A stretch of DNA of 64,000 nt from positions 770 to 64,769 of the IMG/VR virus record IMGVR_UViG_3300032213_002044; one strand, written 5' to 3'. The stretch is from a virus. Lineage: Duplodnaviria > Heunggongvirae > Uroviricota > Caudoviricetes. Below are positions 37,711-52,999 of the stretch, piece by piece; positions within the stretch are counted from its first letter, which is position 1; each line of letters begins with the position of its first letter. Made by a program: the position numbers and the translations under genes. The notes under the pieces were generated by a model, which saw only the letters and a program-made list of their open reading frames with translations, was not told the DNA's origin and did not search any database.

Positions 37711-38110
37711 ACCGGATTTAGTAGTATGGGATGAAGAACGTGGTTACTATCAGAGAGAATTAACTTATGGTAGTAATCACGGAGCTCCCGCTATTAAATT
37801 AGAGGATGTTTCTGGATGGAAATCGAGAGGGGTAGTTAGAGTTAACCATCACTTTAAATCTCGCTACGAAGAAATAAAAGCAGAAGCACAAAACCTAATT
37901 GATGAATACAATTGGAATGAGTTAGTTTATACCGCTCAATTCAATTTTCAACCTGTAATGGGGGAAACATATCATCTTTATATGAGAGAAGATGAATCTG
38001 TTTTTCTTTCTCTTATACCTCCGAATGCTTGGAAACAAAAATATATAGCTTCTTTTGAATTGGATAGTAGAGAGAAGTGGGTTAAGATAAATTTTGAACA
38101 TGAATTATGA
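37682..38110 (+). CDS. Hypothetical protein
   Basis: 142-aa ORF. Confidence 0.45.
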   Translation: MTLKKKKKDKPDLVVWDEERGYYQRELTYGSNHGAPAIKLEDVSGWKSRGVVRVNHHFKSRYEEIKAEAQNLIDEYNWNELVYTAQFNFQPVMGETYHLYMREDESVFLSLIPPNAWKQKYIASFELDSREKWVKINFEHEL

Positions 38111-38972
38111 TTTAGTAATTATTAACGGAGATTCATTTTCCGAAGGTAATGGGTTATATAGGCAATTTGATACATACAAAGAAGAATGTAAGTATTACGA
38201 TTATTGGTTGGAATTAAAAAAACATTCTAATAATGAGGTATTCTTAGACAGGTCTTTTAGTTGGGGATTAAAGATAGCAGAATTATTAGGTGTTCCACTT
38301 TTAAATATATCTAAGAGTGGTTCATCTAATAAATCTATTCTGCGTAGATGGTATTACATATCAGGCATTGAACCCAAAGTTAATCCTTATTTCATATACG
38401 ATTATAAAGTTGGAGAAGATAATTGGGTATTTTTAGAACCCAATAAAAGAATTTTTAAGAAGTATGATAAATCACTTTTAAAAAATTATAAGAATCCTCT
38501 ATGTATAACACAATGGAGTGGTTCATATAGAGCGGATATGACTTATAAGGCTTTAGTACATTCTCTTAATCCAGGTATGAATCAGGTTAATATAGTAGAG
38601 GATTGGCTTAAGCACAATGATATACCAGTTGATTCGGAAAAATTTCATACATTCTTTTCATACTTCACCAATTTTGTAATGACTGATTATTTAGTTCAAT
38701 ATGAAAACTTAAATAATCTAATGGCATATAATCAATTAATGCAAATGAATAGGTTTGATTCTTACTCTATCGCACATCGAATGGCAAATAGTATGGAGTT
38801 TGGATATGATAAGATACTTAATAATGTATTGCCTATGAATGATACCAAACGTATAGAAGAGAACACTTATACATTAAAAGATGTAGGTATTGAAAACTTA
38901 CACTATAGTTTAGAAGGACATGAATATTTTGGAGAATCTATTTTAAATATGATAGAAAAAGGAATAATATAA
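38094..38972 (+). CDS. SGNH/GDSL-like hydrolase (weak)
   Basis: N-terminal VIINGDSFSEGNG block-I motif. Confidence 0.4.
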   Translation: MNMNYDLVIINGDSFSEGNGLYRQFDTYKEECKYYDYWLELKKHSNNEVFLDRSFSWGLKIAELLGVPLLNISKSGSSNKSILRRWYYISGIEPKVNPYFIYDYKVGEDNWVFLEPNKRIFKKYDKSLLKNYKNPLCITQWSGSYRADMTYKALVHSLNPGMNQVNIVEDWLKHNDIPVDSEKFHTFFSYFTNFVMTDYLVQYENLNNLMAYNQLMQMNRFDSYSIAHRMANSMEFGYDKILNNVLPMNDTKRIEENTYTLKDVGIENLHYSLEGHEYFGESILNMIEKGII

Positions 38973-40099
38973 TGGTTAAAGCTTTATACATACACAATAA
39001 TGCTGATACTGAAATAAGAGATGGTGGGTTAGTATTCTATCTACCAATCGGATTTACTTCAACAACTGCATTTAACAAAAATGTAAAGTTAATAGAGGTT
39101 GGTAAATCTATGGACACATTCAATTATAACAATCCAACATATGTAAATAAATTAGTTTCTAAAATAGAATCACTATATGATTTTGATTCCGATTTAAGGT
39201 TTATAATAAATTTTGGCATAGAAGAAAGTATAGTTACAGATGATATTATAAATTTTTACAAAAAAATTCTACATAATAAACCTATACTTTATTTAACAAA
39301 TAATATAAATTATTTAGTAGAACCGAATTTTATTTTATATAATAACAACGAATGGGTTAATCAAAATTGTGATGTTCACTTTATAGATGCGTTAGATAGA
39401 ATTAAAAATGCTGATTTAGGTACAATAAAGAAAAAATTTATGTTTCTTAATAATCACTTCTCTCCTATTAGATTTGATATACTTAAATTAATTCATAAAA
39501 ATAATAAACAATCGGAAGGTAATATATCTTTTAATTTAATAGATTTTAATGAAGCACAATTCGGTATAGAATCGGAGGAATGGTTTTTAAAAGAATGTGA
39601 AGAGTATGGTATTAAATATCCTATGTACTATGATACCTATCCTGGATTATCTAAGATTAGTGAAGTAGAACAACAGAAAAAGAAAATATTAGATATAAAT
39701 CATATAGGCACTGTTCCAATGAATTATAGAATATATTTTGAATCCTTTTTTGAAATAATAACAGAAACTCACCATTTATTAAACGTGCCTTCAGGTGGTA
39801 CATATATTTCCGAAAAAATATATAAGGCTCTTAAATCAGGAAATCCATTTGTATATTATGGAAAAAAAGAAGTTAAGCAACAATTAGAAAAAAAAGGATT
39901 TACATTTAATTCCCCTATATATTTTTTTGGAGTTGGAGAAGAATTTATGAATCATTTAGAAACTATATTAAATAATGATATGGAGTGGTATAATGATGTG
40001 CAGAGAAGATATTTGAAAGAGTATATAAATAATGTTCATGAATATAGTAATCTACAACGGCTTCAAAGTAATATAATAGTAAAATACATATACTCATGA
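38972..40099 (+). CDS. Glycosyltransferase, GT10 alpha-1,3-fucosyltransferase-like
   Basis: C-terminal ETHHLLNVPSGGTYISEKIYKALKSGNPFVYYG resembles the FucT motif FENSxxxxYxTEK(I)xxA...P(I)YWG. Confidence 0.35.
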   Translation: MVKALYIHNNADTEIRDGGLVFYLPIGFTSTTAFNKNVKLIEVGKSMDTFNYNNPTYVNKLVSKIESLYDFDSDLRFIINFGIEESIVTDDIINFYKKILHNKPILYLTNNINYLVEPNFILYNNNEWVNQNCDVHFIDALDRIKNADLGTIKKKFMFLNNHFSPIRFDILKLIHKNNKQSEGNISFNLIDFNEAQFGIESEEWFLKECEEYGIKYPMYYDTYPGLSKISEVEQQKKKILDINHIGTVPMNYRIYFESFFEIITETHHLLNVPSGGTYISEKIYKALKSGNPFVYYGKKEVKQQLEKKGFTFNSPIYFFGVGEEFMNHLETILNNDMEWYNDVQRRYLKEYINNVHEYSNLQRLQSNIIVKYIYS

Positions 40100-40539
40100 T
40101 TTATTGGTTAACAGGTCAGCCAGGTGCAGGTAAAACAACCTTAGTAAAAATGTTATATACACATCTTCATTCTCTCCGCCCTACTATTGTAGATGGTGAT
40201 GATATAAGAGAGATATTTAACAATAAGGATTATTCGGAAGCAGGCCGTAGAAAGAATGTAGAATTGGCACAACATCTTTCTCACTTCATACATAATAAAG
40301 GAGGTCTTGCATTAGTATCATTAGTTTCCCCATATAAAGACCAAAGAGATTCTTTTAAACAATTAATAGGAGAAGATAACATCAAAGAAATATACGTTCA
40401 CACAACGGAGGAAAGAGGTAGAGAGGATTTCTTTGTAGAAGGATACCAACCACCGATTGAAAACTTTATAGATTGTGATACGACAGTTGATAACGAATTT
40501 CAATCCTATAGAAAATTATTACAAAAATTAGATTTATGA
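40096..40539 (+). CDS. cysC: Adenylylsulfate (APS) kinase
   Basis: P-loop WLTGQPGAGKTT, VDGDDIRE (cf. LDGDNVRH), and GRRKNVELAQHL...LVSLVSPYKDQR (cf. DRKENIRRVGEVA...AFISP..R). Confidence 0.75.
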   Translation: MIYWLTGQPGAGKTTLVKMLYTHLHSLRPTIVDGDDIREIFNNKDYSEAGRRKNVELAQHLSHFIHNKGGLALVSLVSPYKDQRDSFKQLIGEDNIKEIYVHTTEERGREDFFVEGYQPPIENFIDCDTTVDNEFQSYRKLLQKLDL

Positions 40540-40913
40540 AAAAATATGCAATGTACATTGGAAGATGGCAAAACTGGCACAAAGGGCATGAATGGTTAAT
40601 AAACCAACAATTAAACAAAGGAAAAAATGTTTGGGTAGCAATTAGAGATGTTCCACAGGATGAGAACAATCCAAAAACTGCTCATCAAGTTTTTTTAGAA
40701 TTAATTGAAGAACCGTTCTTTATTGAAAATAGTAATAAAATTTTAATCAGTATTATTCCTGATATTGAATCGGTTAATTATGGTAGAGGTGTAGGGTACG
40801 ATGTAATCTATCACGAGCCACCATCCGATGTAGCAGTAATTAGTGGAACTGCAATTAGAACAGGTCATATGACACCCGATGGAACTATAACATACGATAA
40901 AACCAAAGGATAG
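40536..40913 (+). CDS. Cytidylyl/adenylyl-transferase-like nucleotidyltransferase (HxGH motif)
   Basis: AMYIGRWQNWHKGHEWL matches the (T/H)xGH nucleotidyltransferase signature (cf. TagD GTFDLLHWGHIKLL). Confidence 0.45.
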   Translation: MKKYAMYIGRWQNWHKGHEWLINQQLNKGKNVWVAIRDVPQDENNPKTAHQVFLELIEEPFFIENSNKILISIIPDIESVNYGRGVGYDVIYHEPPSDVAVISGTAIRTGHMTPDGTITYDKTKG

Positions 40914-41533
40914 TGAACGGAAAAGAGAAACTAATATTATCATCGGATGCAATAATGATTGATGAATTGAAAGAGAAATATAAAAACAATTTTGTTATGC
41001 ACAAAGGTGAGAAATCTCTAATGGTTAAGTTAGCTGAAATTGCTACTAAAAACGGAGGAGATATTTTAGAACTGGGATTTGGAATGCATTTATCAGCGGA
41101 TGCCGTTCAATCTAATCCTAATGTTACATCTCATACAATCATAGAAGTTCATCCTGAGATTTATAAATATGCTTTAATATGGGCTAAAAATAAACCAAAT
41201 ACCGAAATAATATTAGGTGATTGGATTGATATACTACCTACATTAGATAAAAAATTTGATGGTGTTCTGCATGATACTCATCGTGATGAAAATATTCCTA
41301 AATTTTTAGATTATATAAAACCTAATTGTAAGAATGGGACAATAGTTTCATTCTTTTATTTTCCTATATTAGATAATCGGTTTAACTCATATAGACATGA
41401 ATTAGCTGAAAGTGAAACTGAATACTTACCATATAGTAAAAATAAATCGTTTAGATATAATTACGAATTGAAATATACTACATTTGACGGTGAATCATTT
41501 GTTAAGGATAAAAATATAAAAAATATTATATGA
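40913..41533 (+). CDS. Hypothetical protein; possibly a class I SAM-dependent methyltransferase
   Basis: GGDILELGFGM motif-I-like segment; weak. Confidence 0.3.
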   Translation: MNGKEKLILSSDAIMIDELKEKYKNNFVMHKGEKSLMVKLAEIATKNGGDILELGFGMHLSADAVQSNPNVTSHTIIEVHPEIYKYALIWAKNKPNTEIILGDWIDILPTLDKKFDGVLHDTHRDENIPKFLDYIKPNCKNGTIVSFFYFPILDNRFNSYRHELAESETEYLPYSKNKSFRYNYELKYTTFDGESFVKDKNIKNII

Positions 41534-41742
41534 TAGTAGAAAGAAAGAGACATATTGCTAAAACCATATCATATCGTATTGTAAGTACTTTAGTTGGATT
41601 CTTATTGATGTGGCTGATAAGTGGTTCAATTAAGATAGGAGCAGCGTTTGGAGTAGCAGAATTGATTTATAAACCCATTCAATATTATATCCACGAAAGA
41701 GTATGGTACAAATGGATAAAATACGGATTAAAAAATAAATAA
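41530..41742 (+). CDS. Small membrane protein
   Basis: 70 aa; two TM helices. Confidence 0.45.
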   Translation: MIVERKRHIAKTISYRIVSTLVGFLLMWLISGSIKIGAAFGVAELIYKPIQYYIHERVWYKWIKYGLKNK

Positions 41743-42311
41743 TGTTTTATAAATTTATTGAAAACTTTTTAAGTAAAGAAGAATGTGATTTTATCATTTC
41801 GTATGGAGAGGATAATGGATTGCAACAAATGAAATCATCTAAAATCCTAAACGGAAAAGTGATTGAAGCGGATATTGAATATAATGGTAATAAACGAATG
41901 GGTGGATATTTTGTAGATGATTTATTATTAGATTCTCGTATAAAAATTATATCGGATAAGATTTTATCAATTTCAAATGAGTTAAACCCGTTCAATGGAG
42001 TAACATATACATCTATCCCAAAGTACTCATTTAATCGTTATTCCGATGGGGATTTTTTAGAATGGCATGAGGATAAGCATGAAATAATAAATGGAGCAAC
42101 TATAACACTTATTATTCAATTAAATGATAATTATGAAGGAGGATTAGTTAAATACAATATAAATAAAGTAGAGTATTCAATACCAAAACAAATGGGAAGT
42201 GTGTTTATTTTTGATTCTAACATAACACATTCGGTTGATATAATAGAATCGGGTCTAAGATATTCATTGAATGTTTGGCCATCATCAATTAAAAAAGTTA
42301 GTTTAATATAA
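41742..42311 (+). CDS. 2OG-Fe(II) oxygenase, prolyl 4-hydroxylase-like (paralog A)
   Basis: YSDGDFLEWHEDK (HxD), downstream H (ITHSV) and RYSLNVW (RxS). Confidence 0.6.
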   Translation: MFYKFIENFLSKEECDFIISYGEDNGLQQMKSSKILNGKVIEADIEYNGNKRMGGYFVDDLLLDSRIKIISDKILSISNELNPFNGVTYTSIPKYSFNRYSDGDFLEWHEDKHEIINGATITLIIQLNDNYEGGLVKYNINKVEYSIPKQMGSVFIFDSNITHSVDIIESGLRYSLNVWPSSIKKVSLI

Positions 42312-42322
42312 ACAATAGTATC

Positions 42323-42889
42323 GTGTCTAATAATATAATCAAAACATTTGAAAACTTTATATCAACGGAAGAATGTGATTTTATTTTAAATAAATGTAAG
42401 GAAGAATTAACTTTAAAAGCTGCGGAAGTTTATGTTGCTAATTCTAATGATAGATATGATACAAAAATTAGAAAATCATCGATTGGTTGGATATCCGATT
42501 TGGGATTTTTAAATGAAAGATTGACAAGCAAATTAAGAGAAACTTTCAATATAAATGGAATGGAAGTTACAGGATTAGGAGATTTTCAATTTACTGAATA
42601 TAAAGAAGGTGATGAGTATAATTGGCACACCGATGGTGATAATACAATCTTTAGAGATAGATTTACATCAATCGTAATTCAGTTAAATGATGGTTATAAT
42701 GGAGGGGTTTTAGAAATTAAAAATATTAAAGGTGAATTAGTACCAATAGAAAATAAAATTGGTACACTATATATTTTTGATTCAAGACTACTTCATAGAG
42801 TAACACCGGTTGAAACGAATGTACGATATTCATTAGTAAATTGGATATCATTAGTTAAGACCGATTTAAAAAAACAAAATATAATATGA
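42323..42889 (+). CDS. 2OG-Fe(II) oxygenase, prolyl 4-hydroxylase-like (paralog B)
   Basis: EYNWHTDGD (HxD), LLHRV, RYSLVNW; same N-terminal (T/S)xEECDFI(I/L) as paralogs A and C. Confidence 0.6.
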   Translation: MSNNIIKTFENFISTEECDFILNKCKEELTLKAAEVYVANSNDRYDTKIRKSSIGWISDLGFLNERLTSKLRETFNINGMEVTGLGDFQFTEYKEGDEYNWHTDGDNTIFRDRFTSIVIQLNDGYNGGVLEIKNIKGELVPIENKIGTLYIFDSRLLHRVTPVETNVRYSLVNWISLVKTDLKKQNII

Positions 42890-44133
42890 AAAATGTAATT
42901 GTTATTGGAGGAGGAACTGCGGGTTGGTTGACTGCTTTATCCGTTAATAAATTTTGGAAAGATGCTTCCGTTACCTTAATTGAAAGTTCTAAGATAGGAA
43001 TTTTAGGTGCGGGTGAAGGTGGTACACCAAATTTCGGAGCATTCTTATCTCTATTAGGAATAAATCAAAATGATTTTTATAAGAGAACAGGGTGTACGAG
43101 TAAAATTGGATTAACTCTAACGAATTGGACAGGTGATGGCAAGAGTTCATCACATCTTTTTACAGGCCCTAAACCTAATGAGTTTAAGCAAAATTTTGCA
43201 TATCACTTTGATGCTAGAATGGTGGCGGAATATTTGAAAGAGATATCTTTATCTAGAGGTGTTAAATGGATTGATGGTGAAGTTGATAATGTAGGTAAGG
43301 AAGGAGATGATATCCATTCTGTTTCACTTAAGGATGGAACTGATATTAAAGATATAGATTTTATATTTGATTGCAGTGGATTTGCTAGAATTATCATAGG
43401 TAAAGTTCATAATGAAGAGTGGATTGATTATTCCAAATATCTTTTATTGAATAGAGCTATGGCATATTTTCTACCACAAGAAAATCAATATTCAATAGGA
43501 GATGTTACCCACACTAACATGATTTCAATGAATTCAGGATGGATGTGGCAGATACCATTACAACATAGATGGGGATGTGGATATACATTTAACTCAGAAT
43601 TTATTACCGTTGATGAAGCTAAAAAAGAGGTAGAAGATTATATTGGTAAAGAAATTACTATACAAAAAGTATTTGATTTTAAGCCTGGTACACATAAGAG
43701 GAGTTGGATAGGTAATAGTGTTGCAATTGGATTATCATATGGATTCATAGAACCATTGGAAGCTACTTCGTTGATGTCAACTATAATGCAATTAAGGAGA
43801 ATAATAAGTGCTAAATTCGATGTTTCTCTTAGAGATAGATTTAATGATACTTGCTCTAGTATCAATGAGCAAAATATGATGTTCGTTAGATATCATTATT
43901 TAGCCGAAAGGTTTGATACTCCTTTTTGGAAAGCATCATATGAAATGCCTATTCCTGAGAAGTTACAACTTATATTAGATGCGGATAATAATATAATCCC
44001 AAAAACAAATGCTGAATTACTGAAAATTTTTGATTTAAAAGAAGTGGATGAAATGGAATTAACTTTCTTTACTTATAATTATCAAATGATTTTTAAGAAA
44101 AATAAAAAAGTTTCAATAAAAGAATTAATATAA
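42886..44133 (+). CDS. Flavin-dependent halogenase family protein (tryptophan-halogenase-like)
   Basis: VIVIGGGTAGWLTA FAD motif (GxGxxG followed by W) and GWMWQIPL (WxWxIP), plus FIEPLEATS. Confidence 0.7.
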   Translation: MKNVIVIGGGTAGWLTALSVNKFWKDASVTLIESSKIGILGAGEGGTPNFGAFLSLLGINQNDFYKRTGCTSKIGLTLTNWTGDGKSSSHLFTGPKPNEFKQNFAYHFDARMVAEYLKEISLSRGVKWIDGEVDNVGKEGDDIHSVSLKDGTDIKDIDFIFDCSGFARIIIGKVHNEEWIDYSKYLLLNRAMAYFLPQENQYSIGDVTHTNMISMNSGWMWQIPLQHRWGCGYTFNSEFITVDEAKKEVEDYIGKEITIQKVFDFKPGTHKRSWIGNSVAIGLSYGFIEPLEATSLMSTIMQLRRIISAKFDVSLRDRFNDTCSSINEQNMMFVRYHYLAERFDTPFWKASYEMPIPEKLQLILDADNNIIPKTNAELLKIFDLKEVDEMELTFFTYNYQMIFKKNKKVSIKELI

Positions 44134-44134
44134 T

Positions 44135-44782
44135 ATGGAAAAAATTTATTTCGATGATGCCACTTTTATATGGAAAGGCAAATTAGATTTATCCATGTAT
44201 AAGGATATAATTTTAAGGGAAGCAAATGAAGTAATAGATTCTTTAAAAGAAGTAGTTCATACCGATGGATTTGGTTATAAAATAGAATGGACTAATGATA
44301 TAAATTTCAATGGGAACTTTTCTATACAAAATAAATTAGATGAGGTTTGTCAATATGGAATTGATGTATGTAAAGATATATACTTAGAGCAGTTTGGTAA
44401 AGAATTTAATAAAGTTAACACCGATGCATGGGTAAATGTTGTTCGTTCAAAAGAGCCGGTGCAAGAAAACTTCTATGATAAAAAACAAAAATACCATATT
44501 CATACAGAAATTAATAAGAAAACAAAATCATTTGTTCCCGATTATACATATGTTTATTATATACAGATGCCAGATACGATGGAAGGTGAGGATGGTGTTT
44601 TATATTTTAAAGGAAAGGATGATACAGAATATTGGATAAGACCTGAAGAAGATGATATAATAGTAATGGAAGGTTGGATGCCACACGCTCCAAACAATGC
44701 ACCTACCTCTACAATAGATAGAGTTGTATTAGCGGGAAATGTTGGATTTGATTTTATTAAAAAAGAAAAAAGTTTACTTTAA
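44135..44782 (+). CDS. Hypothetical protein
   Basis: 215-aa ORF inside the modification cluster. Confidence 0.5.
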   Translation: MEKIYFDDATFIWKGKLDLSMYKDIILREANEVIDSLKEVVHTDGFGYKIEWTNDINFNGNFSIQNKLDEVCQYGIDVCKDIYLEQFGKEFNKVNTDAWVNVVRSKEPVQENFYDKKQKYHIHTEINKKTKSFVPDYTYVYYIQMPDTMEGEDGVLYFKGKDDTEYWIRPEEDDIIVMEGWMPHAPNNAPTSTIDRVVLAGNVGFDFIKKEKSLL

Positions 44783-45507
44783 TGTTAATTGATAATAAAT
44801 TTGTTTATTTATCCTTACCTAGATGTGCATCAACTTCTTTTCATATCTCGTGTATTAGACATAATTTTGATGTAAAGCATGCCAATCCTAAGTTTGATAA
44901 ATCTTATAAAAATGATGAATTAATTAAATTAAGTAATATGGAATTGGTATATGATATAAATCATTTTCATGAGACAATTAATGAGTTAACAGAAACATTT
45001 GGTAGAGAATATGATATAATATCAGTTAAACGAAATAGATACGATAGATATATATCTTATTTTAATCATTGTATTGGAGAACTACAACGACATGACATTT
45101 TTATGATAGCGGATACATTATTAGAATTAAATGTAGATGATATTTTGTTTTATAAAAGTGAAGACCTAATAAGTAAAGAATCCAGACTTGATTTACTTAA
45201 CACATTTCTTAAAAGAATAGGTTATTTAAATTTTCATAAAAGATTAGAATCTTTATTATTACCATTGTTTTCACCCATGTCTGTTTACCACAATAATAAT
45301 TCTAACATAATTTGGTTTGATTTTACTAATTTAAAACATTTAGAAGAGTGGGTATCATTTAAAACAAGTAAACCTTTTAAGCTAGAAATGTTTGGTTCTA
45401 GTATTGATTATAAATCTAATATAATAAATGATGAATATTTTGTAAAAAAATATAATTCAATATATGATTACTATGATTTTTTTAAAAAACAAGATACCTT
45501 AATTTAA
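44782..45507 (+). CDS. Sulfotransferase-like protein (paralog 1)
   Basis: LSLPRCASTSFH PAPS 5'-phosphosulfate-binding-loop-like motif; paralog of the next gene. Confidence 0.35.
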   Translation: MLIDNKFVYLSLPRCASTSFHISCIRHNFDVKHANPKFDKSYKNDELIKLSNMELVYDINHFHETINELTETFGREYDIISVKRNRYDRYISYFNHCIGELQRHDIFMIADTLLELNVDDILFYKSEDLISKESRLDLLNTFLKRIGYLNFHKRLESLLLPLFSPMSVYHNNNSNIIWFDFTNLKHLEEWVSFKTSKPFKLEMFGSSIDYKSNIINDEYFVKKYNSIYDYYDFFKKQDTLI

Positions 45508-45508
45508 T

Positions 45509-46255
45509 ATGTTAATTGACAATAAATTTTTATATATTTCTCTACCTAGATGTGGCTCTACATCATTTCATTATTCATGTATCATAAATGGATTAGATGT
45601 AAAGAATTTAGATACTCGTGCTGACTATGAAAATTCTAAGATAGATTTTGGTTCTATAGATGAATCCAACATAATGAATTTTATAGAGCACGGTCATACA
45701 CCCTTAAGTGAACTACAGAATAAATTTGGATATGATTTACCTATAATAGCAACTAAAAGAGATAGGTATGAGAGATTCTATTCTTTATACAGGCATATTA
45801 TATATGATTTAGATAGAGTTGGTCTAACTAAATTATCTTCCGAAATTTGTAATCTAGATTTAAATGAATTATTCTTTTTCAATACAATGGATATTATATC
45901 AAAAAGAAAAAGATATGATTCTATTTATTCTTTTTTAATTAAATTAATACCTGAAATAAAGTATAATGAAAGTGATAGTTTTTATCAATATGTAATTAAC
46001 GTAATTGATATTTTATTAACACCTATTTCACACTGGCATAATCATGACAAAAATATTATTTGGTTTGATATAAATGAAACGAATAAGATGGAAGAATGGG
46101 TATCAAATATCACAAATATCGAATTTAAATTAAAACATGTAAATTCTAGTATGTTTATCCAACCTAAGTTGAAGTTGGATAGTGAATTTATAGAAAGATA
46201 TGATTCTGTATATGAATACTATGATTTTCCAAAGAGCAATAAATCACTATTATAA
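45509..46255 (+). CDS. Sulfotransferase-like protein (paralog 2)
   Basis: ISLPRCGSTSFH; RDRYERFYSLY region resembles the 3'-PB. Confidence 0.35.
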   Translation: MLIDNKFLYISLPRCGSTSFHYSCIINGLDVKNLDTRADYENSKIDFGSIDESNIMNFIEHGHTPLSELQNKFGYDLPIIATKRDRYERFYSLYRHIIYDLDRVGLTKLSSEICNLDLNELFFFNTMDIISKRKRYDSIYSFLIKLIPEIKYNESDSFYQYVINVIDILLTPISHWHNHDKNIIWFDINETNKMEEWVSNITNIEFKLKHVNSSMFIQPKLKLDSEFIERYDSVYEYYDFPKSNKSLL

Positions 46256-46548
46256 TGAATATACCAAACTATAGAGAAATATTTGAAGCATGGATAATTT
46301 CTAAAAATCCAACGGAAACGCAGAAATTGATGGCAAATGATAGGTTAGATATATGTAAGACTTGTGAGTATAGAAAGGAGATTTTTAAAGGTAATAAATG
46401 GTCTACTATATGCAAAAAATGTGGATGTCCATTGAGTAAAAAAGTATTTTCCCCGTTGTTTAATCCATGTCCAATGGAAAAATGGGAGGAAATTGATTCT
46501 AACTATATGCAGAAAGTACCCAAAAAATCAAAGAGTACTATAATATAA
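46255..46548 (+). CDS. Small Cys-rich protein (zinc-ribbon-like)
   Basis: CKTCEY...CKKCGCPL...NPCPME. Confidence 0.45.
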   Translation: MNIPNYREIFEAWIISKNPTETQKLMANDRLDICKTCEYRKEIFKGNKWSTICKKCGCPLSKKVFSPLFNPCPMEKWEEIDSNYMQKVPKKSKSTII

Positions 46549-46584
46549 AAAATAGATATTTATACTAAATTAACAGAATAATAT

Positions 46585-48075
46585 ATGAAAGGAGTGATAA
46601 TTGGCAGTGATTTGTTGGAACACAACGGAGATGTCAAGTTTATAGAAATTAACACTAATACAACTATCTATAATAATGGAGCCGAACTGCTTGATTATGA
46701 TAGTTTATTTGATATGCTTACTTCCAATGGGATAACCGAATTCCATTTTATTTGGACAGAATACGATGCGTTTACACCTCTATACGAACCATATAAGTTT
46801 AGGGAAATCGTAGAACAAAGGTGTTCTGATAATAACATTTCATTCCATGCTTATGTTGTACCAATGGGTTCTATTACAATTCCTTATATAGAAGATTCCG
46901 CAACTAAGTTTATCTTACGACAATCATATGATACAACTGCTCTAATAGATGAAACATATTGTGCGGATAAGTTTGGATTTTTCGATTTAATGCATAGTTC
47001 AGAATATATTCCAAAAACATTTTTTGATACGGCTGAAATAAATTTTGATACATTAGATTCTGTAGATTACAGTAGTAGTTTACATCCTAATATTTTAATA
47101 AAAGCTAGATATCCACAATATGATAAAGTTTCGTATCCAGAAATTCAGATTATTAGTAATAATTCTGAATTAGATAATATAAAGAGTAATCTTCCTACTA
47201 ACTATTTGGCACAGGAATTTATATATTCTGAGGATAATTTAGTTGAAGATAGATATTCTGTAATTAGAAGTATAGATATATTGTATGGTCCCAATTTAGA
47301 TGTAATAAATATGGGAGGGTATAGACAATCTACTATTTTACCAATTTCAACATTTGAGAATGAATTTAAAAGTGGTTCTACAATATTAGACCAAAAAAGT
47401 AGATACAAATATATCACAAAAATGATAGATGATGTAAAACATGAATATCATACAGATGAAGATTCTTTAATTGTAGATTATACTGGTTCACTACAAAGAG
47501 CCGATGCTATACAATTAGGTACTTATATTCGTTCAATTGATTTTGTTGATTTCAATGGTAATCATGCAGCTAACTTCGAAGAAGGAAAATTAGATGTATT
47601 AGGATGGGAAAGTACATTACAACAATCCAAAGATACGTTAGCTCAAACTACCTCTAGTTTAAATAATATTGTATCTGCATCGGTTGATACTATGTTTATT
47701 AGAGTTACATTGACAGATGGTAGAAGCTGGATAGATTCACCTGCGTGTACATACTATATAGAGGAATCTGGTTCATTAGCAACTAGATTTGAAATATTAA
47801 ATAAAATGTATGTAGGAGACAAAATAGTAATCACAAATGCGGAAACTTCTGAATTAACTACATTAGAAATCGCAGGATTAGAAATGGAACACACAAAAAT
47901 GACGGTATATGCTTTGGATTTTGAACCATCCGACCTTTTCTTAGTTGATTTAGGAGCGGGTAATTTTGGAGTAATGCACAACCCCTGTTGGTGTCCATGG
48001 AGTTATTGTGGAAATTGGTGCTTTAGTAGCTATTGCAGCCAATGTGGTGGTGGTCGTCCACCTGCGAAAGTTTAA
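46585..48075 (+). CDS. Large protein of unknown function with Cys/Trp-rich C-terminal tail
   Basis: C-terminal HNPCWCPWSYCGNWCFSSYCSQCGGGRPPAKV: 7 Cys, 3 Trp, 2 Tyr, 4 Pro in the last 32 aa. Confidence 0.55.
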   Translation: MKGVIIGSDLLEHNGDVKFIEINTNTTIYNNGAELLDYDSLFDMLTSNGITEFHFIWTEYDAFTPLYEPYKFREIVEQRCSDNNISFHAYVVPMGSITIPYIEDSATKFILRQSYDTTALIDETYCADKFGFFDLMHSSEYIPKTFFDTAEINFDTLDSVDYSSSLHPNILIKARYPQYDKVSYPEIQIISNNSELDNIKSNLPTNYLAQEFIYSEDNLVEDRYSVIRSIDILYGPNLDVINMGGYRQSTILPISTFENEFKSGSTILDQKSRYKYITKMIDDVKHEYHTDEDSLIVDYTGSLQRADAIQLGTYIRSIDFVDFNGNHAANFEEGKLDVLGWESTLQQSKDTLAQTTSSLNNIVSASVDTMFIRVTLTDGRSWIDSPACTYYIEESGSLATRFEILNKMYVGDKIVITNAETSELTTLEIAGLEMEHTKMTVYALDFEPSDLFLVDLGAGNFGVMHNPCWCPWSYCGNWCFSSYCSQCGGGRPPAKV

Positions 48076-48248
48076 ACTAAAAATTAAATACAAAAATAAA
48101 TAAAATGTTTAAAGTAAATAAAATAGAAAGACCTCAAACGGTCATTAAAGTTTTAGTTAAACCAATTTCGGTTGAACTTAAAACTAAAATATCATCTGCC
48201 GTTCAATCATTTGTAAATAGAGTTAAGGATAAACATTTGAGTTAATAT

Positions 48249-48767
48249 ATGTTAACACAATCAATCCTATTCACTAAAGAAGAATGTGATTATATCATTG
48301 GATTAAAAAATAAATATCCACAACAAGGTGATAATGGTAGATGGGAAGAATTTGATAACTTCATATACAAATTTCATACTCTGGAACATTTATCTGATGT
48401 AGATTGGGTAATCAAACGATTATGTGATTTTTTTGAATCCCAAATGGATTTGCATATTTTCGTAAGACCAACTAAACTTAATTTACACCATTATACGGAA
48501 GGAGATGAATTTGGTAAACATATAGATACTGGTACTCCTATAAAAGAATGGAATGTTGGTATTCTGTTAAACGAAGATTTTGATGGTGGTGATTATTTAG
48601 TGTTCAATAAAAATGATGAACCTATTGTAATTGATAAAAAGATAGGTAATGTGTGTATATATCAATCACAAACTCCACATCAAGTTACTCCGATAACAAA
48701 AGGAGAAAGATGGGCGGTGGCTATGTTCATACATAAATTTAGAATGAATCCTAATACACTTTTATGA
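48249..48767 (+). CDS. 2OG-Fe(II) oxygenase, prolyl 4-hydroxylase-like (paralog C)
   Basis: EFGKHIDTG (HxD), TPHQV, RWAVAMF; N-terminal TKEECDYII. Confidence 0.6.
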   Translation: MLTQSILFTKEECDYIIGLKNKYPQQGDNGRWEEFDNFIYKFHTLEHLSDVDWVIKRLCDFFESQMDLHIFVRPTKLNLHHYTEGDEFGKHIDTGTPIKEWNVGILLNEDFDGGDYLVFNKNDEPIVIDKKIGNVCIYQSQTPHQVTPITKGERWAVAMFIHKFRMNPNTLL

Positions 48768-49405
48768 AAATATTAATATTAGGTACACCTAGAAGTGGTT
48801 CAACTTCATTGGTTAGATTAGTAGATTCTCAAATGAATCTTTTTAATTATAGAATGTTTATCGAACCATTCAATCAACTTCTAGATGAAGAGATTACTTC
48901 AATAACACCTTTATTAGAATACGATAACATTTTAGTTAAGAATTTATTTTTAATAGGCAATGATGAATATCCAAAAGATTCATTTATGGATTTTTTTGAA
49001 TATTTAAATTGGTGTTATTCTTATTTTGATAAAATAATTATATTAGATAGAAAGGATAAACTTGCTCAATCGGAAAGTTTTGCTGTAAATGAAACATCTA
49101 TGCGAGAAAAAGGTATCGGATGGCATACACCTAAGATTTATGATGTTGATAAAATAGAACCATCTTATATCAAAACAATGATTGATAGATATACCAAATC
49201 AAGTGAAATCCTACATAATATATCATACAAACAAAAGTTTCCTATATTCTACTATGAAGATATATTCTTAGAAAAAAGTAGAAAACATATTGAAGAATTA
49301 TTTAGTTATTTAGATATGGAGGTGGATGAATCTAATTATATGGAATGGATATTATCGCCTGATAGAAGAGTTAGAATTAATAAAAACAAACAAAGTTTAA
49401 TATAA
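48764..49405 (+). CDS. Sulfotransferase (Stf0-like)
   Basis: ILILGTPRSGSTSL matches the PRSGST 5'-PSB motif. Confidence 0.5.
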   Translation: MKILILGTPRSGSTSLVRLVDSQMNLFNYRMFIEPFNQLLDEEITSITPLLEYDNILVKNLFLIGNDEYPKDSFMDFFEYLNWCYSYFDKIIILDRKDKLAQSESFAVNETSMREKGIGWHTPKIYDVDKIEPSYIKTMIDRYTKSSEILHNISYKQKFPIFYYEDIFLEKSRKHIEELFSYLDMEVDESNYMEWILSPDRRVRINKNKQSLI

Positions 49406-49974
49406 TGGAAAAGTTATTTTACAAAAATCAAAATTGGGATGAATTTCATGTCAATAGTGGTAAGATTTTAACGGATGTAAAAATTATATCCAATTCGGTT
49501 TATCACGAATTCAGAGGTTCTATATGGACTACATTTCATTCGGATTATTTCCCAAAGGTATTACCATCTGATTTACAATTTAAACACGATAGATTCTCAC
49601 AATCATATAAGGGTGTGTTGAGGGGATTACATTATGATGATAAGACTTGGAAACTATTAAGTTGTCCAATTGGTTCTCTCTATACCGTATTAGTTGATAT
49701 GAGACCTGAATCTGAAACGTATTTAAAATCGGAAACGTTTATTATGTCTCCTCAAACTAATATACAAATACTTTGTCCTCCAATGTTTGCAAACGGTCAT
49801 TATGTATTAACATATGATTCTTTATTCTGCTATAAAATGGCATACGAAGGTGAATACAATGATGATACTAAACAAAAGACAGTTAGGTGGGATGACCCTA
49901 AGTTGGGAATAGATTGGCCTACTAAAACTCCTACTTTATCTAAAAGAGATGCTAACGCAGCATTTATCGATTAA
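49405..49974 (+). CDS. dTDP-4-dehydrorhamnose 3,5-epimerase-like cupin (RmlC family)
   Basis: GVLRGLHYD (cf. RGLHFQ), PMFANGHYVL, VRWDDPKLGIDWP (cf. YDDPTLAIEWP). Confidence 0.7.
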   Translation: MEKLFYKNQNWDEFHVNSGKILTDVKIISNSVYHEFRGSIWTTFHSDYFPKVLPSDLQFKHDRFSQSYKGVLRGLHYDDKTWKLLSCPIGSLYTVLVDMRPESETYLKSETFIMSPQTNIQILCPPMFANGHYVLTYDSLFCYKMAYEGEYNDDTKQKTVRWDDPKLGIDWPTKTPTLSKRDANAAFID

Positions 49975-51004
49975 TATGAGTATCAAACCTTACATACGAA
50001 ATGAATGGGGGAAACTAAAAGAGATAATAGTTGGTAGACCAGAGTTTGCTCAGATTCCTACTATAAGGGATAAATCTCTACATACAATTGATTATGCTAA
50101 TTATACAGATGACCAATTTCGTAAGATACCATATGGAACTTATCCTAATTGGATGATTGAGGAAACGAAAGAGGATTTAGATAACCTATCGATTACATTA
50201 GAAGGGTTGGGTGTTAAAGTACATAGACCTTCTCTGATAGATTGGAGTGAGAAGTATTCAACTGAAAATTGGGAAGTAGATGGATACTATGGTTACTGCC
50301 CTAGAGATTCTATGTTAGTTATAGAAGATAAAGTTATTGCTACTCCTATGGCTCTCCGCCAAAGACAAAATGAAACGAGAGCATTTAAACATCTATTCGA
50401 TGAAACACATTGGGTAGATTTTCCCAAACCGAAATTATTAGATTCAATATACGATAGGGGTTTATTACCAGGCCCTACATTAAGAAATGATGAGCCTGTA
50501 TTTGATGCGGCTAATATCCTTAAGTGTAATAACGATATTCTATTCCTAATATCGAATACCGGTAATAGAGCAGGAGCTGAATATCTTCAAAAATGGTTAG
50601 ATGAAAATATGAAGGAAAAGTATAATGTACATCCTATTGAAGATGTGTATGCATTCATCCATATAGATACCACTTTTGTCCTCATTAGAGAGGGACTGGT
50701 CTTAGTTAATCCTAAAAGGGTAAATAGTACCAACCTACCTAAAATCTTTCAATCGTGGGAGGTTATATACTCTCCTGAGATGGTGGAGACGAATTGTTTA
50801 GAACATTGGGCAGAAGCATCACCCTGGTTGGGAATGAACACCTTATCCTATGATGAGAATACGATGATAGTAGAGGAACGCCAAATACCTCTTATGAAGG
50901 AGTTAAAGAAATATGGGGTAGATTCTATACCCGTTAAAATGAGACACGCTCGTACATTTAGTGGAGGCCCTCATTGTGTAACATTGGATACAATTAGAGA
51001 ATAA
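49949..51004 (+). CDS. Amidinotransferase-family protein
   Basis: C-terminal FSGGPHCVTLD matches the catalytic-Cys block of glycine/inosamine amidinotransferases; 351 aa is family-typical. Confidence 0.55.
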   Translation: MLTQHLSINMSIKPYIRNEWGKLKEIIVGRPEFAQIPTIRDKSLHTIDYANYTDDQFRKIPYGTYPNWMIEETKEDLDNLSITLEGLGVKVHRPSLIDWSEKYSTENWEVDGYYGYCPRDSMLVIEDKVIATPMALRQRQNETRAFKHLFDETHWVDFPKPKLLDSIYDRGLLPGPTLRNDEPVFDAANILKCNNDILFLISNTGNRAGAEYLQKWLDENMKEKYNVHPIEDVYAFIHIDTTFVLIREGLVLVNPKRVNSTNLPKIFQSWEVIYSPEMVETNCLEHWAEASPWLGMNTLSYDENTMIVEERQIPLMKELKKYGVDSIPVKMRHARTFSGGPHCVTLDTIRE

Positions 51005-51008
51005 TTTA

Positions 51009-51040
51009 TTTGGATATATCGATTATTTTTCGTATCTTTG
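51009..51040 (+). promoter_or_regulatory. Bacteroidetes-type promoter (TTTG-N20-TATCTTTG)
   Basis: ATTTATTTGG ... TTTTTCGTATCTTTG. Confidence 0.45.
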
Positions 51041-52618
51041 AAGACTAATAAAATTATAATGTCAGATAAGAAATATTTTTACGAAAAGTGTGATTATTTT
51101 AACGAACCTCATATTAACTTAAAATATGAAGATGTACTTAAAATGACACTTACCGAATTCGAAGAGTGGGTTACTATGTTCCGTAAGACCGTAGTTGATG
51201 AGTGGAACAAAACAGGAGCACCTCCACGCATTGGTTCTTCGGAGGCTGAGATTATAGACCAATTCTCTAAACTACAAACCTATAAGGTTGATAAATTTGA
51301 AGAGAAAGATGATGATGGAAATGATGTTATTTTTAACTTCAATAAATTTGCTACTCCGGTAAATCAATTCTTTCCCGCGATGTATAAGACGGGGATTGGT
51401 GGTTCTTCTTATGATAAACCAAAACCATCTATCTACGATATATTTTGTAATGATGAATTTCTTCCTGAATTTGCAAAACAAATGAGGAGATTGACACGAC
51501 AAGATGCTATGTATCGTTTCTCTAAAACATTAGCTAAAGATAATAAAGAACATCATAATTCACATCTTACTACAGGTAAAGAATGGATTGAAAAATGGAT
51601 GAATGGAAATGTGTGGGAAGGGCATGATTTTTGCTTAGCACAAACTGATAGTAGAATTGAATCTTTACCAATTACTGCTGAAGAGGTAAAAGAATTGTAC
51701 AAAGCAGGTGTGATTCAGTATAAACATATATCATCACTTAAAACTGCTAATTGGGGAGAAGATATTGATTCATTAACTGAATTGGAAAAACAACCTATTC
51801 AATTAAAGTGGTATCCTTTGGGTCAAACTATTTTTCCTGAAGCAACTGCGGCATTTAGAATTGGAATGGGTACACAAGCAGCTGTAAACTTTCCTCCACT
51901 AACTGCAAAGTATTTGTATCAGAAATATACAAACCATATTAAAGACCAAAAACAAATTAATATCTATGACCCATCTTCTGGCTGGGGAGGTAGAATATTA
52001 GGTGCGTTATCGGTTGATGATAGAAACATTCACTACATAGGTAATGACCCAAATACAGAGAATTATATTCCTGAAATTGGTAAGAGTAGATATGAATATT
52101 TAGCAGAGTTCTTTAATAGTAAAATACCTGGAGCATGTAATCCATTTTGGGGACACAAAAACACATATGAGATTTACAGAACGGGCTCAGAGATTATTAG
52201 TGAGCAAGAAGGATTCCAAAAGTATAAAGGTAATTTAGATTTTATATTTACTTCACCTCCTTACTTTGATAGAGAAAGATATTCCGATGATGAAACACAA
52301 TCATTTAAGAAATTTGGTAACTACGAAAGTTGGAGAGATGGATTTTTACGACCTACTTTGGTAACCGCATTTGAGTATTTACGAAATGATAGATATATAT
52401 TATGGAACATTGCTGATATTAAGATAGGAAAAAGTTTCTATCCATTAGAACAGGATTCAATTGATATACTAACCGAATTAGGAATGGAGTATCAAGGTAA
52501 AATCCGAATGACGATGTCTCCAATGACGGGAGTTGATTTAAGTGGTGTTAAAAATAGTATGAAGATAGGTGGTCAGTTCTACAAATATGAACCGATATTT
52601 ATATTCTACAAAAAATAA
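51038..52618 (+). CDS. Putative SAM-dependent amino-methyltransferase (N6-A/N4-C type, SPPY motif) with a large N-terminal extension
   Basis: Motif I-like IYDPSSGWGGR followed by motif IV FIFTSPPYF; paralog of 59802-61016. Confidence 0.45.
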   Translation: MKTNKIIMSDKKYFYEKCDYFNEPHINLKYEDVLKMTLTEFEEWVTMFRKTVVDEWNKTGAPPRIGSSEAEIIDQFSKLQTYKVDKFEEKDDDGNDVIFNFNKFATPVNQFFPAMYKTGIGGSSYDKPKPSIYDIFCNDEFLPEFAKQMRRLTRQDAMYRFSKTLAKDNKEHHNSHLTTGKEWIEKWMNGNVWEGHDFCLAQTDSRIESLPITAEEVKELYKAGVIQYKHISSLKTANWGEDIDSLTELEKQPIQLKWYPLGQTIFPEATAAFRIGMGTQAAVNFPPLTAKYLYQKYTNHIKDQKQINIYDPSSGWGGRILGALSVDDRNIHYIGNDPNTENYIPEIGKSRYEYLAEFFNSKIPGACNPFWGHKNTYEIYRTGSEIISEQEGFQKYKGNLDFIFTSPPYFDRERYSDDETQSFKKFGNYESWRDGFLRPTLVTAFEYLRNDRYILWNIADIKIGKSFYPLEQDSIDILTELGMEYQGKIRMTMSPMTGVDLSGVKNSMKIGGQFYKYEPIFIFYKK

Positions 52619-52620
52619 TT

Positions 52621-52999
52621 GGGGGTGCCTGGTTTTGACAGGTACGATGAGTTAGTACGTTGATGCAAGCAGGGTTAGATGGAAATCCTTAAATACCTAT
52701 CGAACAATAAACGACGTAGAATTATCTACAATGACCTTCGAAGATGCAATGGCATTCGTTGGTGCTGATTACGCTGTAGCAGCCTAATCTCTCCCGCACA
52801 CATCGTGGGATATAAAATAGAATGTGTACCAAGGTGGAAAAGTGATTGAACCCGAAATCGAATCACCTATTGTTTATCGGTTGCCGATGGTGAAGAACCA
52901 ACCGAATATTTTGTTTGTTAAGAAAAACAAACTAAGCTTGTGAATGAGGTTTATTAAATCCGTATTTGGACGAGGGTTCGACTCCCTCCACCTCCACCA
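52621..52999 (+). ncRNA. ssrA: tmRNA (SsrA), phage-encoded
   Basis: 5' GGGGGUG pairs with 3' CACCUCC-A-CCA including a G3:U wobble; T-arm GGTTCGACTCCC; tag reading frame ...GADYAVAA followed by TAA. Confidence 0.85.

Follow-up and report, generated by a model that had tools for sequence, protein, structure and literature searches.

A phage gene block with sulfation-, hydroxylation- and halogenation-type enzymes around a putative self-processing carrier of a cysteine-rich peptide

What would a phage sulfate, hydroxylate and halogenate? The question is raised by a run of genes at positions 38094–51004 of a 64,000-nucleotide stretch (hereafter the window) of IMG/VR virus record IMGVR_UViG_3300032213_002044 (Caudoviricetes; positions 770 to 64,769 of the record). 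A preliminary description, made from the sequence alone, had read the block as a sulfation, hydroxylation and halogenation gene set acting either on a sulfated, fucose-containing glycan or on a cysteine-rich peptide, such as the C-terminal tail of the 496-amino-acid (aa) protein encoded from 46585. Here, we tentatively favour the view that the block is a phage-borne peptide-maturation cassette, in which a self-processing carrier would free a disulfide-rich peptide and neighbouring enzymes would decorate it. The open reading frames (ORFs) were found at the positions described; all are uninterrupted + strand genes that overlap or follow one another closely, and the 496-aa protein with its Cys/Trp/Pro/Tyr-rich tail is present at 46585–48075. 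This protein (GH496) is the proposed carrier and comprises three parts.

46585..47439, + strand: ATP-grasp amide-ligase domain, aa 1–285 of the 496-aa protein
47452..47982, + strand: Hint (bacterial-intein-like) domain, aa ~290–466 of the 496-aa protein
47983..48075, + strand: 30-aa tail PCWCPWSYCGNWCFSSYCSQCGGGRPPAKV and stop codon, presumed core peptide

The 496-aa protein had no match in Pfam, PHROG or NCBIfam and is the best-conserved gene product of the block. The family is widespread: a word-indexed search returned 528 matches, and 271 clusters (50 % identity), with members down to 22 % full-length identity, came from an exhaustive one. The AlphaFold2 (AF2) model built from 52 diverse sequences had a pLDDT of 87.3 and a pTM of 0.82 (an earlier model from a shallow alignment of 60–87 % identity had a pLDDT of 42), with disorder only at residues 325–336 and over the last 28 residues, the tail falling below a pLDDT of 50. 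Residues 1–285 adopted an ATP-grasp fold with conserved residues of the Mg/ATP-binding type, and residues ~290–466 a Hint fold; independently, the family sequence profile matched the M. jannaschii KlbA intein (6.5e-9). Residues E21, N23, R112, D122 and R228 were invariant in the diverse alignment, and K173, H465 and N466 were more than 90 % conserved, a pattern that would be expected if both the ATP-grasp site and the intein-type C-terminus were functional. The ATP-grasp domain was the most invariant part of the protein, and its closest folds were YgiC, GspS, glutathione synthetases and Cp1B, at 11–14 % identity. The architecture of ATP-grasp domain, Hint domain and Cys-rich tail is almost certain.

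The terminal His-Asn of the Hint domain was kept at the corresponding alignment position by 106 of the 113 cluster representatives, down to 22 % identity, and by all 59 members of the window's clade. Position 1 of the domain was not conserved, being Ser in the clade and Asp or other residues in distant members. A splicing intein was ruled out by the lack of an N-terminal nucleophile, the lack of a +1 nucleophile and the presence of only a short tail downstream. Because the N-terminal nucleophile is not conserved and only a short tail follows the Asn, the domain is better described as a putative bacterial intein-like (BIL) module, any cleavage by which would be limited to its C-terminal end.

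The segment that such cleavage would release begins directly after Asn466 and consists of 30 residues with six Cys, a Trp/Tyr/Pro-rich composition and a Lys-hydrophobic end; it holds no Asp or Glu, leaving the C-terminus as its only carboxylate. Within the clade, Cys at 468, 470, 475, 479 and 484 was present in 59 of 59 sequences and C487 in 58; G476 was invariant, W469 and K495 were each kept in 58 and W472 in 54 of the 59, and P471, Y474, S481, Y483 and P485 were also conserved. The resulting core, x-C-W-C-P-W-x-Y-C-G-x-(W/Y)-C-x-S-x-Y-C-P-x-C, showed a mean pairwise identity of 65 % and is as conserved as the enzyme domains. It is followed by a variable Gly/Pro linker (29 % identity), K495 and a hydrophobic last residue. 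Across the family, segments after the His-Asn contained 16.3 % Cys compared with 0.5 % in the body of the protein (113 full-length cluster representatives). Their sequences differed greatly between clades while their character stayed constant (rich in Gly, Ser, Tyr and Pro); the Cys count was even (8, 6, 10 or 12) in 64 of 69 tails, and a Lys stood among the last three residues in 40 of the 69.

Two kinds of variant carry a second processing module beyond the Cys-rich segment. In one relative (P0243), MHN is followed by a 45-residue Cys-rich segment, a Cys, LTSDT, a canonical Hint domain that ends in THN, and AKKF. In another (P0278) and at least eight others, the HN is followed by a Cys/Trp/Gly-rich segment, a K|SD junction and a Peptidase_S74 domain (PF13884 scores reaching 29 bits, above the cutoff in four cases). 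The placing of two predicted self-cleaving modules around a Cys-rich segment is the strongest argument that this segment would be a released product rather than a linker.

The genes around the carrier are listed here with the evidence for each.

38094..40099, + strand: two ORFs, 292 aa (38094, GDS motif) and 375 aa (38972); peripheral
40096..40539, + strand: adenosine 5'-phosphosulfate (APS)-kinase-like P-loop kinase, 147 aa, shortened lid (PF01583)
40536..40913, + strand: minimal HxGH / ISGTxIR nucleotidyltransferase, 125 aa (motifs, weak profile matches)
40913..41533, + strand: S-adenosylmethionine (SAM)-methyltransferase-like protein, 206 aa, accessory (weak Methyltransf_24)
41530..41742, + strand: DUF2061 small membrane protein (PF09834, 8e-17)
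41742..42311, + strand: prolyl-4-hydroxylase (P4H)-type 2-oxoglutarate (2OG)-Fe(II) oxygenase (a) (PF13640, 3.5e-11; LSKEECDFI box)
42323..42889, + strand: P4H-type 2OG-Fe(II) oxygenase (b) (PF13640, 8e-14)
42886..44133, + strand: short flavin-dependent enzyme of the Trp-halogenase family, 415 aa (PF04820, 2.2e-91)
44135..44782, + strand: g215, divergent 2OG-oxygenase-like protein, 215 aa (PF13640, 4e-4, below cutoff)
44782..45507, + strand: candidate sulfotransferase, PRCASTS loop, 241 aa (loop only)
45509..46255, + strand: candidate sulfotransferase (ST248), PRCGSTS loop, 248 aa (loop, invariant residues)
46255..46548, + strand: zinc-ribbon-like Cys-rich protein (Zn97), 97 aa, CxxC...CxxCGC...CPxxKW (phrog_13558, 2.5e-8; DUF6171, 0.012)
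48105..48245, + strand: 46-aa basic ORF (s46), IERPxTVIK...KHLS (position and sequence conserved)
48249..48767, + strand: P4H-type 2OG-Fe(II) oxygenase (c) (PF13640, 2.2e-11)
48764..49405, + strand: probable sulfotransferase (ST213), PRSGST loop, 213 aa (homologues with PF00685/PF13469)
49405..49974, + strand: RmlC-like cupin, peripheral (PF00908, 1.3e-37)
49949..51004, + strand: amidinotransferase, peripheral (StrB1, 1bwd, 8.3e-83)

Gene order was compared by BLASTP of the ORFs of about 90 related loci against the window genes. The recurrent order was APS-kinase-like gene, nucleotidyltransferase, DUF2061, 2OG oxygenase, halogenase, g215, 2OG oxygenase, ST248, Zn97, GH496, s46 and ST213, with the APS-kinase-like gene heading the block in most loci and the DUF2061 protein always paired with the 125-aa nucleotidyltransferase. 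This core order was found again in about 80 IMG/VR viral contigs, some as long as 333 kb, which goes far beyond a chance assembly; the preliminary description had proposed conserved synteny in related phages as a check. The gene for the zinc-ribbon-like Cys protein that it had named (here 46255) stands directly downstream of ST248 in nearly every locus and is a near-constant companion of the 496-aa gene. A protein of this type (69–97 aa) is encoded near the 496-aa gene in four of four distant relatives with readable surroundings (adjoining it in L010, L090 and L091, and at a distance of 7.6 kb in L011). The 46-aa basic ORF (MFKVNKIERPQTVIK...KDKHLS) lies below the usual ORF-length cut-off and had no family match; its sequence is conserved in the window's clade. 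An ORF of 43–50 aa comes immediately after the 496-aa gene in almost all relatives inspected (L006, L008, L011, L090, L091 and the P0278 contig), a position kept even in relatives of 25–30 % identity.

Distant relatives differ in the enzymes that accompany the carrier. One homologue of 26 % identity is adjoined by a carbamoyltransferase, an APS kinase, the nucleotidyltransferase and a 2OG oxygenase; another stands alongside a 2OG oxygenase, GT25 and enzymes of the radical-SAM (rSAM)-SPASM and B12-rSAM types; a further one has only a 2OG oxygenase. In relatives of the block, replacement or extra tailoring enzymes comprise radical-SAM/SPASM and B12-binding radical-SAM enzymes, NodU/CmcH-type carbamoyltransferases and GT25 (L011 3920–4930 and 8083–9786, – strand; L006 770–2407; L010 1743–3419). 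Enzymes of the rSAM-SPASM type are commonly involved in the maturation of peptides that are ribosomally synthesized and modified post-translationally (RiPPs).

The enzymes of the window block itself were assigned with differing firmness. Three P4H-like oxygenases with a common N-terminal box had been described, and the ORFs at 41742, 42323 and 48249 scored 44.3, 52.8 and 45.0 bits against PF13640, all above the gathering cutoff of 27 (e-11 to e-14), each with the box xxEECD(F/Y)I. The 44135 product (g215) is a weak, sub-threshold fourth 2OG-oxygenase-like protein (21.7 bits against the same cutoff, hence not a confirmed member), and its gene lies directly 3′ of the halogenase in nearly every halogenase-bearing locus. 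The flavin-dependent halogenase had been named from two signatures, GGGTAGW and WxWxIP; both are present, the second as WMWQIP, and the protein matched PF04820 at 2.2e-91 (307 bits). The motifs GGGTAGW, GWMWQIP, TSKIG and EPLEAT can be read in its sequence, and the last two presumably hold the catalytic Lys and Glu by analogy with K79 and E346 of PrnA. Its PDB matches were BrvH (3e-59), VirX1 (5e-57) and RebH. With 415 aa it is shorter than its solved relatives (497–554 aa): the Pfam alignment stops at position 419 of 458 of the profile, the PDB alignments stop at query residues 351–371, and the C-terminal substrate-binding module of free-Trp halogenases (RebH/PrnA-type) is lacking.

Four sulfotransferase-like proteins had been counted. 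The PR(S/C)(G/A)ST loop occurs in only three ORFs of the whole window (44782, 45509 and 48764), and of these the 48764 product gained family-level support whereas the other two gained none beyond the loop. The 48764 product itself scored 18.2 bits against PF13469 and 16.4 bits against PF00685, both below cutoff; because many homologues of 62–79 % identity carry precomputed PF00685/PF13469 matches, its assignment as a sulfotransferase is backed at the level of the family. The products of 44782 and 45509 are paralogues of 35–37 % identity. The former had no profile match in Pfam, PHROGs or NCBIfam. The 45509 family comprised 276 homologues, of which none carried a Pfam match, and 25 members scanned against Pfam gave none at E ≤ 1. 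Its invariant residues are P13, R14, S17, T18, H61, H63, R84 and S92 (R84-x7-S92), and the order P-R-x-x-S-T, His, R-x7-S is what we would expect of a sulfotransferase; we take order and spacing to resemble SULT1E1. Alignment of the 45509 and 48764 families with hhalign joined the loop alone (14 columns, probability 23 %). PDB searches with the single sequences of 48764, 45509 and 38972 and with the family profiles of 45509 and 48764 returned nothing significant.

An APS kinase had been proposed, and the product of 40096 is APS-kinase-like: it matched PF01583 at 1.5e-18 (67.8 bits, above the cutoff of 21.1), and all 22 of its 22 best PDB matches were APS kinases (best 5cb6, 2.7e-12). It keeps a GQPGAGKT P-loop together with VDGDDIR, RRKN and VSPY. 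Its score against NCBIfam TIGR00455 was 68.9 against a cutoff of 138.7, all subfamily models were likewise below cutoff, and by alignment its lid is about 30 residues shorter than that of 5cb6. It is presumed to supply 3'-phosphoadenosine 5'-phosphosulfate (PAPS). The small HxGH nucleotidyltransferase that had been paired with it does show the motifs (GRWQNWHKGH and ISGTAIR, as read from the sequence), with weak profile matches to nicotinamide mononucleotide (NMN) adenylyltransferase and cytidylyltransferase families. The 125-aa protein belongs to the same nucleotidyltransferase superfamily as ATP sulfurylase and might work with the kinase as a minimal sulfate adenylyltransferase. A single family, PHROG 10255 ('kinase', 230 aa), covers both the 40096 and the 40536 ORFs, so the two appear to be fused in other phages. 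Genes for APS-kinase-like proteins are rare in phages: of 50,697 records, 13 have one. The nearest relative in an isolated phage was gp32 of Xylella phage Salvo (NC_042345.1, L093 3983–4729), a 248-aa 'kinase' whose length would fit a kinase-HxGH nucleotidyltransferase fusion, as PHROG 10255 suggests; its neighbours are MazG, a topoisomerase and a cysteine dioxygenase, and no sulfotransferase lies nearby.

These observations can be joined into the following scheme. Asn466 would cyclise as in C-terminal cleavage of inteins and BIL domains, freeing the tail with a new N-terminus, and the neighbouring enzymes would decorate the tail before or after release. The short Trp halogenase, in which the C-terminal module that encloses free Trp is absent, could act on W469 and W472, the P4H-type oxygenases on P471, P485 and the C-terminal prolines, and the sulfotransferase or sulfotransferases on Tyr or Ser with PAPS that the APS-kinase-like enzyme would supply; the 125-aa nucleotidyltransferase might serve as a mini ATP sulfurylase. 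The ATP-grasp domain may activate a carboxylate, most simply the tail C-terminus beside the invariant Lys, to form an amide by cyclisation or by ligation to an amine. Because the Cys count is even, the product would be disulfide-bonded and so would act outside the reducing cytoplasm, for example after lysis. A bolder version, which we consider possible but on balance doubtful, is that the 496-aa family represents a new route to ribosomal products, in which the Hint domain cuts out a disulfide-rich peptide, the fused ATP-grasp domain closes or conjugates it and phage enzymes add conotoxin-like decorations. By this route the peptide might be cyclised head-to-tail into a cyclotide-like knot, or ligated via the invariant C-terminal Lys-X, and once freed at lysis it might act on competitors, grazers or uninfected hosts.

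Several findings weigh against this scheme. The +1 residue after the Asn is Pro in the window and A, P, Y, V or others family-wide, and the block-F His typical of inteins appears, as read from the sequence, to be Asp here; cleavage by the Hint module is therefore a prediction. Some family members lack any Cys-rich segment, as in P0352, which reads HN-YE-Hint-HN-RPMIGV-Hint-HNK. Two of the three 'sulfotransferases' (44782 and 45509) are without profile support, and some homologues of the third, 48764, were named 'LPS sulfotransferase NodH', a carbohydrate sulfotransferase, by JGI. The role of the kinase and nucleotidyltransferase may differ from that assumed, given the likely fusion in Salvo with no nearby sulfotransferase. 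Only synteny, a guilt-by-association argument, ties the enzymes to the proposed substrate. The earlier proposal of modifications on a Cys-rich peptide such as the tail from 46585 is partly supported, having gained from the Hint domain, the conserved His-Asn, the ATP-grasp domain and the bracketing by two modules in relatives. In addition, the presence of the halogenase did not track the Trp content of the tail (L003, L050 and L081 have Trp-rich tails and no halogenase within reach), and in the distant member L091 neither a halogenase nor a 2OG oxygenase nor a sulfotransferase is encoded within 10 kb. Therefore, the triad of 97-aa, 496-aa and 46-aa proteins works without them; since the tailoring enzymes are lineage-dependent and the halogenase does not follow tail Trp, the triad is the core, to which halogenase, oxygenases and sulfotransferases have been added in this lineage.

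Glycan or small-molecule tailoring, of a sugar, an aminocyclitol or the host surface polysaccharide, with the 496-aa protein as an unrelated neighbour, is an unlikely alternative. The NodH naming of 48764 homologues would fit it, and so would the right flank, where an RmlC-like cupin and an amidinotransferase had been described correctly. The former matched PF00908 at 129.5 bits (cutoff 27; about 1e-37), with TIGR01221 at 108.7 bits, below the equivalog cutoff of 155.75. The latter matched StrB1 (1bwd) at 8.3e-83 over residues 16–350, SxtG at 8.5e-50 and the amidinotransferase AGAT at 4e-44. Both families belong to sugar or aminocyclitol pathways, and genes for GT25, carbamoyltransferase, PIG-L and glucosamine-isomerase proteins lie near relatives of the block. 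However, the RmlC-like and amidinotransferase genes, together with that of a 526-aa protein on the right flank, are peripheral and occur in a subset of loci only; RmlA, RmlB and RmlD were not found in the block, and the conserved core encodes neither a glycosyltransferase nor a nucleotide-sugar synthase. The GT10 fucosyltransferase-like call for 38972 fails: its product had no Pfam match at E ≤ 10 except DUF6123 (0.25), and none in PHROGs, NCBIfam or PDB. The SGNH hydrolases came down to one ORF (38094) with an N-terminal GDSF motif and no match in Pfam (E ≤ 10), PHROGs or NCBIfam. Both left-flank ORFs (292 and 375 aa) were found only in the subset of loci that also carries PhoH upstream. P4H-type oxygenases and Trp halogenases are, as families, enzymes of peptides and aromatics rather than glycans, and the tight order from halogenase through g215, 2OG oxygenase, ST248 and Zn97 to GH496 would be left unexplained. 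Overall, the sulfated, fucose-containing glycan of the preliminary description is weakly placed.

Two genes of the block allow a further observation. The 40913 methyltransferase matched Methyltransf_24 weakly (1.2e-3), and its homologues in L008, L009 and L011 carry precomputed PF27704 matches (guanidinoacetate N-methyltransferase family). The amidinotransferase (49949–51004) and this methyltransferase (40913–41533) resemble two steps of creatine-type guanidino-compound synthesis; alternatively, the invariant Lys in the tail could be their substrate for amidination and methylation.

The 496-aa protein might instead be a virion or adhesin protein, its Cys-rich end a binding tip and its Hint or S74 domain a folding or maturation module, with the enzymes modifying virion proteins; we judge this improbable. 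Peptidase_S74, an intramolecular chaperone of tail fibres, does stand at the end of nine relatives, the C-terminal segment varies greatly between clades as receptor-binding tips do, and in pelagiphage HTVC008M a halogenase and 2OG oxygenases lie inside the structural module. By contrast, the block in the window is set among PhoH, methylase and tmRNA genes and not among structural genes, the first 285 residues form a globular ATP-grasp enzyme, in which residues of catalytic type are invariant, rather than a fibre or an anchor, and the two-domain architecture occurs in no BFVD viral structure, the 496-aa protein being matched there through its Hint domain only (TMq ≤ 0.29).

There is a similarly small chance that the kinase and nucleotidyltransferase serve nucleotide or cofactor salvage (e.g. 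a kinase with an NMN adenylyltransferase), that the PR(S/C)GST proteins are unrelated P-loop-like proteins and that no sulfation takes place. The best profile matches of the nucleotidyltransferase are indeed NMN adenylyltransferases, the kinase has its shortened lid and sub-equivalog scores, and the Salvo form lies in a region of replication and nucleotide metabolism. These points are opposed by the uniformly APS-kinase PDB matches of the kinase and its retained DGDxxR, RxxN and SPY motifs, by the true sulfotransferase Pfam matches among 48764 homologues, and by the co-occurrence of the kinase with block genes in most loci and in the relative of 26 % identity.

Finally, a small-molecule amide synthetase (glutathionylspermidine-like or forming another acid-amine conjugate) with a regulatory, metal-binding or redox-sensing Hint domain and tail and no peptide product, as the small-molecule ligases among its closest folds, the high invariance of its ATP-grasp domain and members such as P0352 might suggest, is very unlikely, since it would leave unexplained the near-universal terminal His-Asn, the second self-cleaving module beyond the Cys-rich segment, the even Cys counts and the co-localised tailoring enzymes of peptide type.

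The proposed peptide-maturation cassette has partial counterparts among known systems. Since about 2005–2010, marine phages have been known to encode 2OG-Fe(II) oxygenases and Trp halogenases in large numbers, and we know of no substrate for them. The halogenase VirX1 of cyanophage Syn10 has a solved structure (PDB 6qgm). Phage arrays of dioxygenases and halogenases were predicted to modify peptides, and bacterial operons were described in which beta-hydroxylases, sulfotransferases and PAPS synthetases accompany proteins of the tail-collar or Gly-rich kind (Iyer et al. 2010, PMC2938197). The suggestion that the block would be new for a phage does not hold for arrays of 2OG oxygenases and Trp halogenases, which are found in cyanophages and HTVC008M. 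In these marine phages the same two enzyme families are adjacent, with a 2OG oxygenase directly before the halogenase in HTVC008M, and the window halogenase is 28–36 % identical to halogenases of 83 phage records. Unlike the window block, they have no ATP-grasp-Hint protein (tblastn) and no relative of 48764, none of their records is among the 13 with an APS-kinase-like gene, they offer no candidate substrate, and their halogenases are about 100 residues longer.

The predicted release step recalls BIL domains, the BUBL proteins of Tetrahymena (BIL-Ubl-BIL) and pretoxin-HINT domains, which share the terminal His-Asn with no required +1 nucleophile and release a polypeptide from a larger precursor. 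Two autoprocessing domains flank a segment in relatives of the 496-aa protein as they flank Ubl in BUBL proteins, and a variable C-terminal cargo is also seen in polymorphic toxins. In contrast to all of these, the window Hint domain is phage-encoded, fused to an ATP-grasp ligase and devoid of an N-terminal nucleophile, its cleavage is a prediction, and its cargo is a Cys-rich peptide of 25–100 residues rather than Ubl or an enzymatic toxin.

In borosins (OphMA) the RiPP core peptide is fused to its own enzyme, and graspetides, including microviridins, are RiPPs made with ATP-grasp enzymes. The 496-aa protein likewise holds an enzyme domain and a presumed core peptide on one polypeptide, associates an ATP-grasp enzyme with a ribosomal peptide and is surrounded by candidate tailoring enzymes. 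It differs in that its ATP-grasp domain is of the YgiC/GspS/glutathione-synthetase type and not of the microviridin-ligase type, its tail offers no Asp or Glu for side-chain lactones or lactams, and release would be by the fused Hint domain instead of a separate protease. With YgiC, GspS and eukaryotic glutathione synthetase, an enzyme with a circularly permuted ATP-grasp fold, it shares an N-terminal strand bearing an E-x-N metal-binding motif (read from the sequence), which suggests a circularly permuted fold here too; the low identity to these proteins and the fusion to a Hint domain and peptide set it apart. The RaxX/RaxST/RaxPQ system of Xanthomonas makes a tyrosine-sulfated ribosomal peptide with dedicated PAPS-synthesis genes and so similarly places a sulfotransferase and its own activated-sulfate enzymes beside a ribosomal peptide, but its carrier architecture is entirely different, and sulfation of the tail is only predicted here. 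As a chemical analogy, conotoxins contain bromo-Trp, hydroxy-Pro, sulfo-Tyr and disulfides, and the conserved residue types of the tail (Trp, Pro, Tyr and Cys) are those modified in conotoxins.

The ATP-grasp-Hint-Cys-tail architecture had no match in isolated phages (tblastn) and was not found in the literature searched by limited term combinations. The novelty lies in the candidate substrate and in its carrier; clusters for peptide modification and autoprocessing by Hint domains have been described before. The block sets beside enzymes of the marine-phage type a concrete candidate substrate, a conserved six-Cys peptide on a predicted self-cleaving carrier. In the bolder version, the peptide of the 496-aa protein would also represent the kind of substrate that has long been sought for the many marine-phage 2OG oxygenases and halogenases. 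If the main proposal is right, an intein-type release step with a fused ligase would be added to peptide natural-product biosynthesis, and lytic phages would be able to make heavily modified peptides. Compact enzymes for biocatalysis (the 415-aa halogenase, the 147-aa APS kinase and the 125-aa nucleotidyltransferase) would also be on offer.

The source of the window is an uncultured large phage lineage, since all block relatives found sit on IMG/VR or metagenomic contigs (some of 288–333 kb) and a genome-contig scan found none in GTDB representative genomes. The phage origin and the unusual enzyme set of the preliminary description are borne out by this distribution and by the rarity of APS-kinase-like genes in phage records. 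A host-derived island with broken genes was ruled out, the genes being intact and the synteny confined to viral contigs. No support was found for a Flavobacteriia host. Megablast against the 50,697 phage records returned no DNA nearly identical to the block or to window positions 1–25000, and a promoter and terminator scan gave no excess over shuffles.

The window has a GC content of about 0.33, nearly all its genes on the + strand and a strong GC skew. The GC content of the block (38–50 kb) is 0.25–0.30, and it falls to 0.248 at positions 44001–46000, over the two PRC(A/G)STS paralogues. The window also codes for GroEL, PhoH, an endonuclease, DNA-methylase-like proteins and a tmRNA. Full-length GroEL (1122–2759, + strand; phrog_5725, 1e-176) is 59–62 % identical to GroEL of Bacteroides phages and huge uncultured phages. 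The tmRNA lies directly after the block (52621–52999, + strand; Rfam RF00023, 101 bits, full length); its tag peptide predicted by ARAGORN, DVELSTMTFEDAMAFVGADYAVAA, ends in -YAVAA, which might hint at a host group. Two large proteins (51038–52618 and 59802–61016, + strand) share a C-terminal DNA-methyltransferase-like region, assigned from phrog_12517 and phrog_498 with a weak PF01555 match; the first of them (526 aa, g526) is the protein of the variable right flank with RmlC and the amidinotransferase. Far from the block, an ORF at 22735–23163 (+ strand) codes for 142 aa with nine cysteines (CGDCGRCC...); that strand has no further sizeable Cys-rich ORF outside the block.

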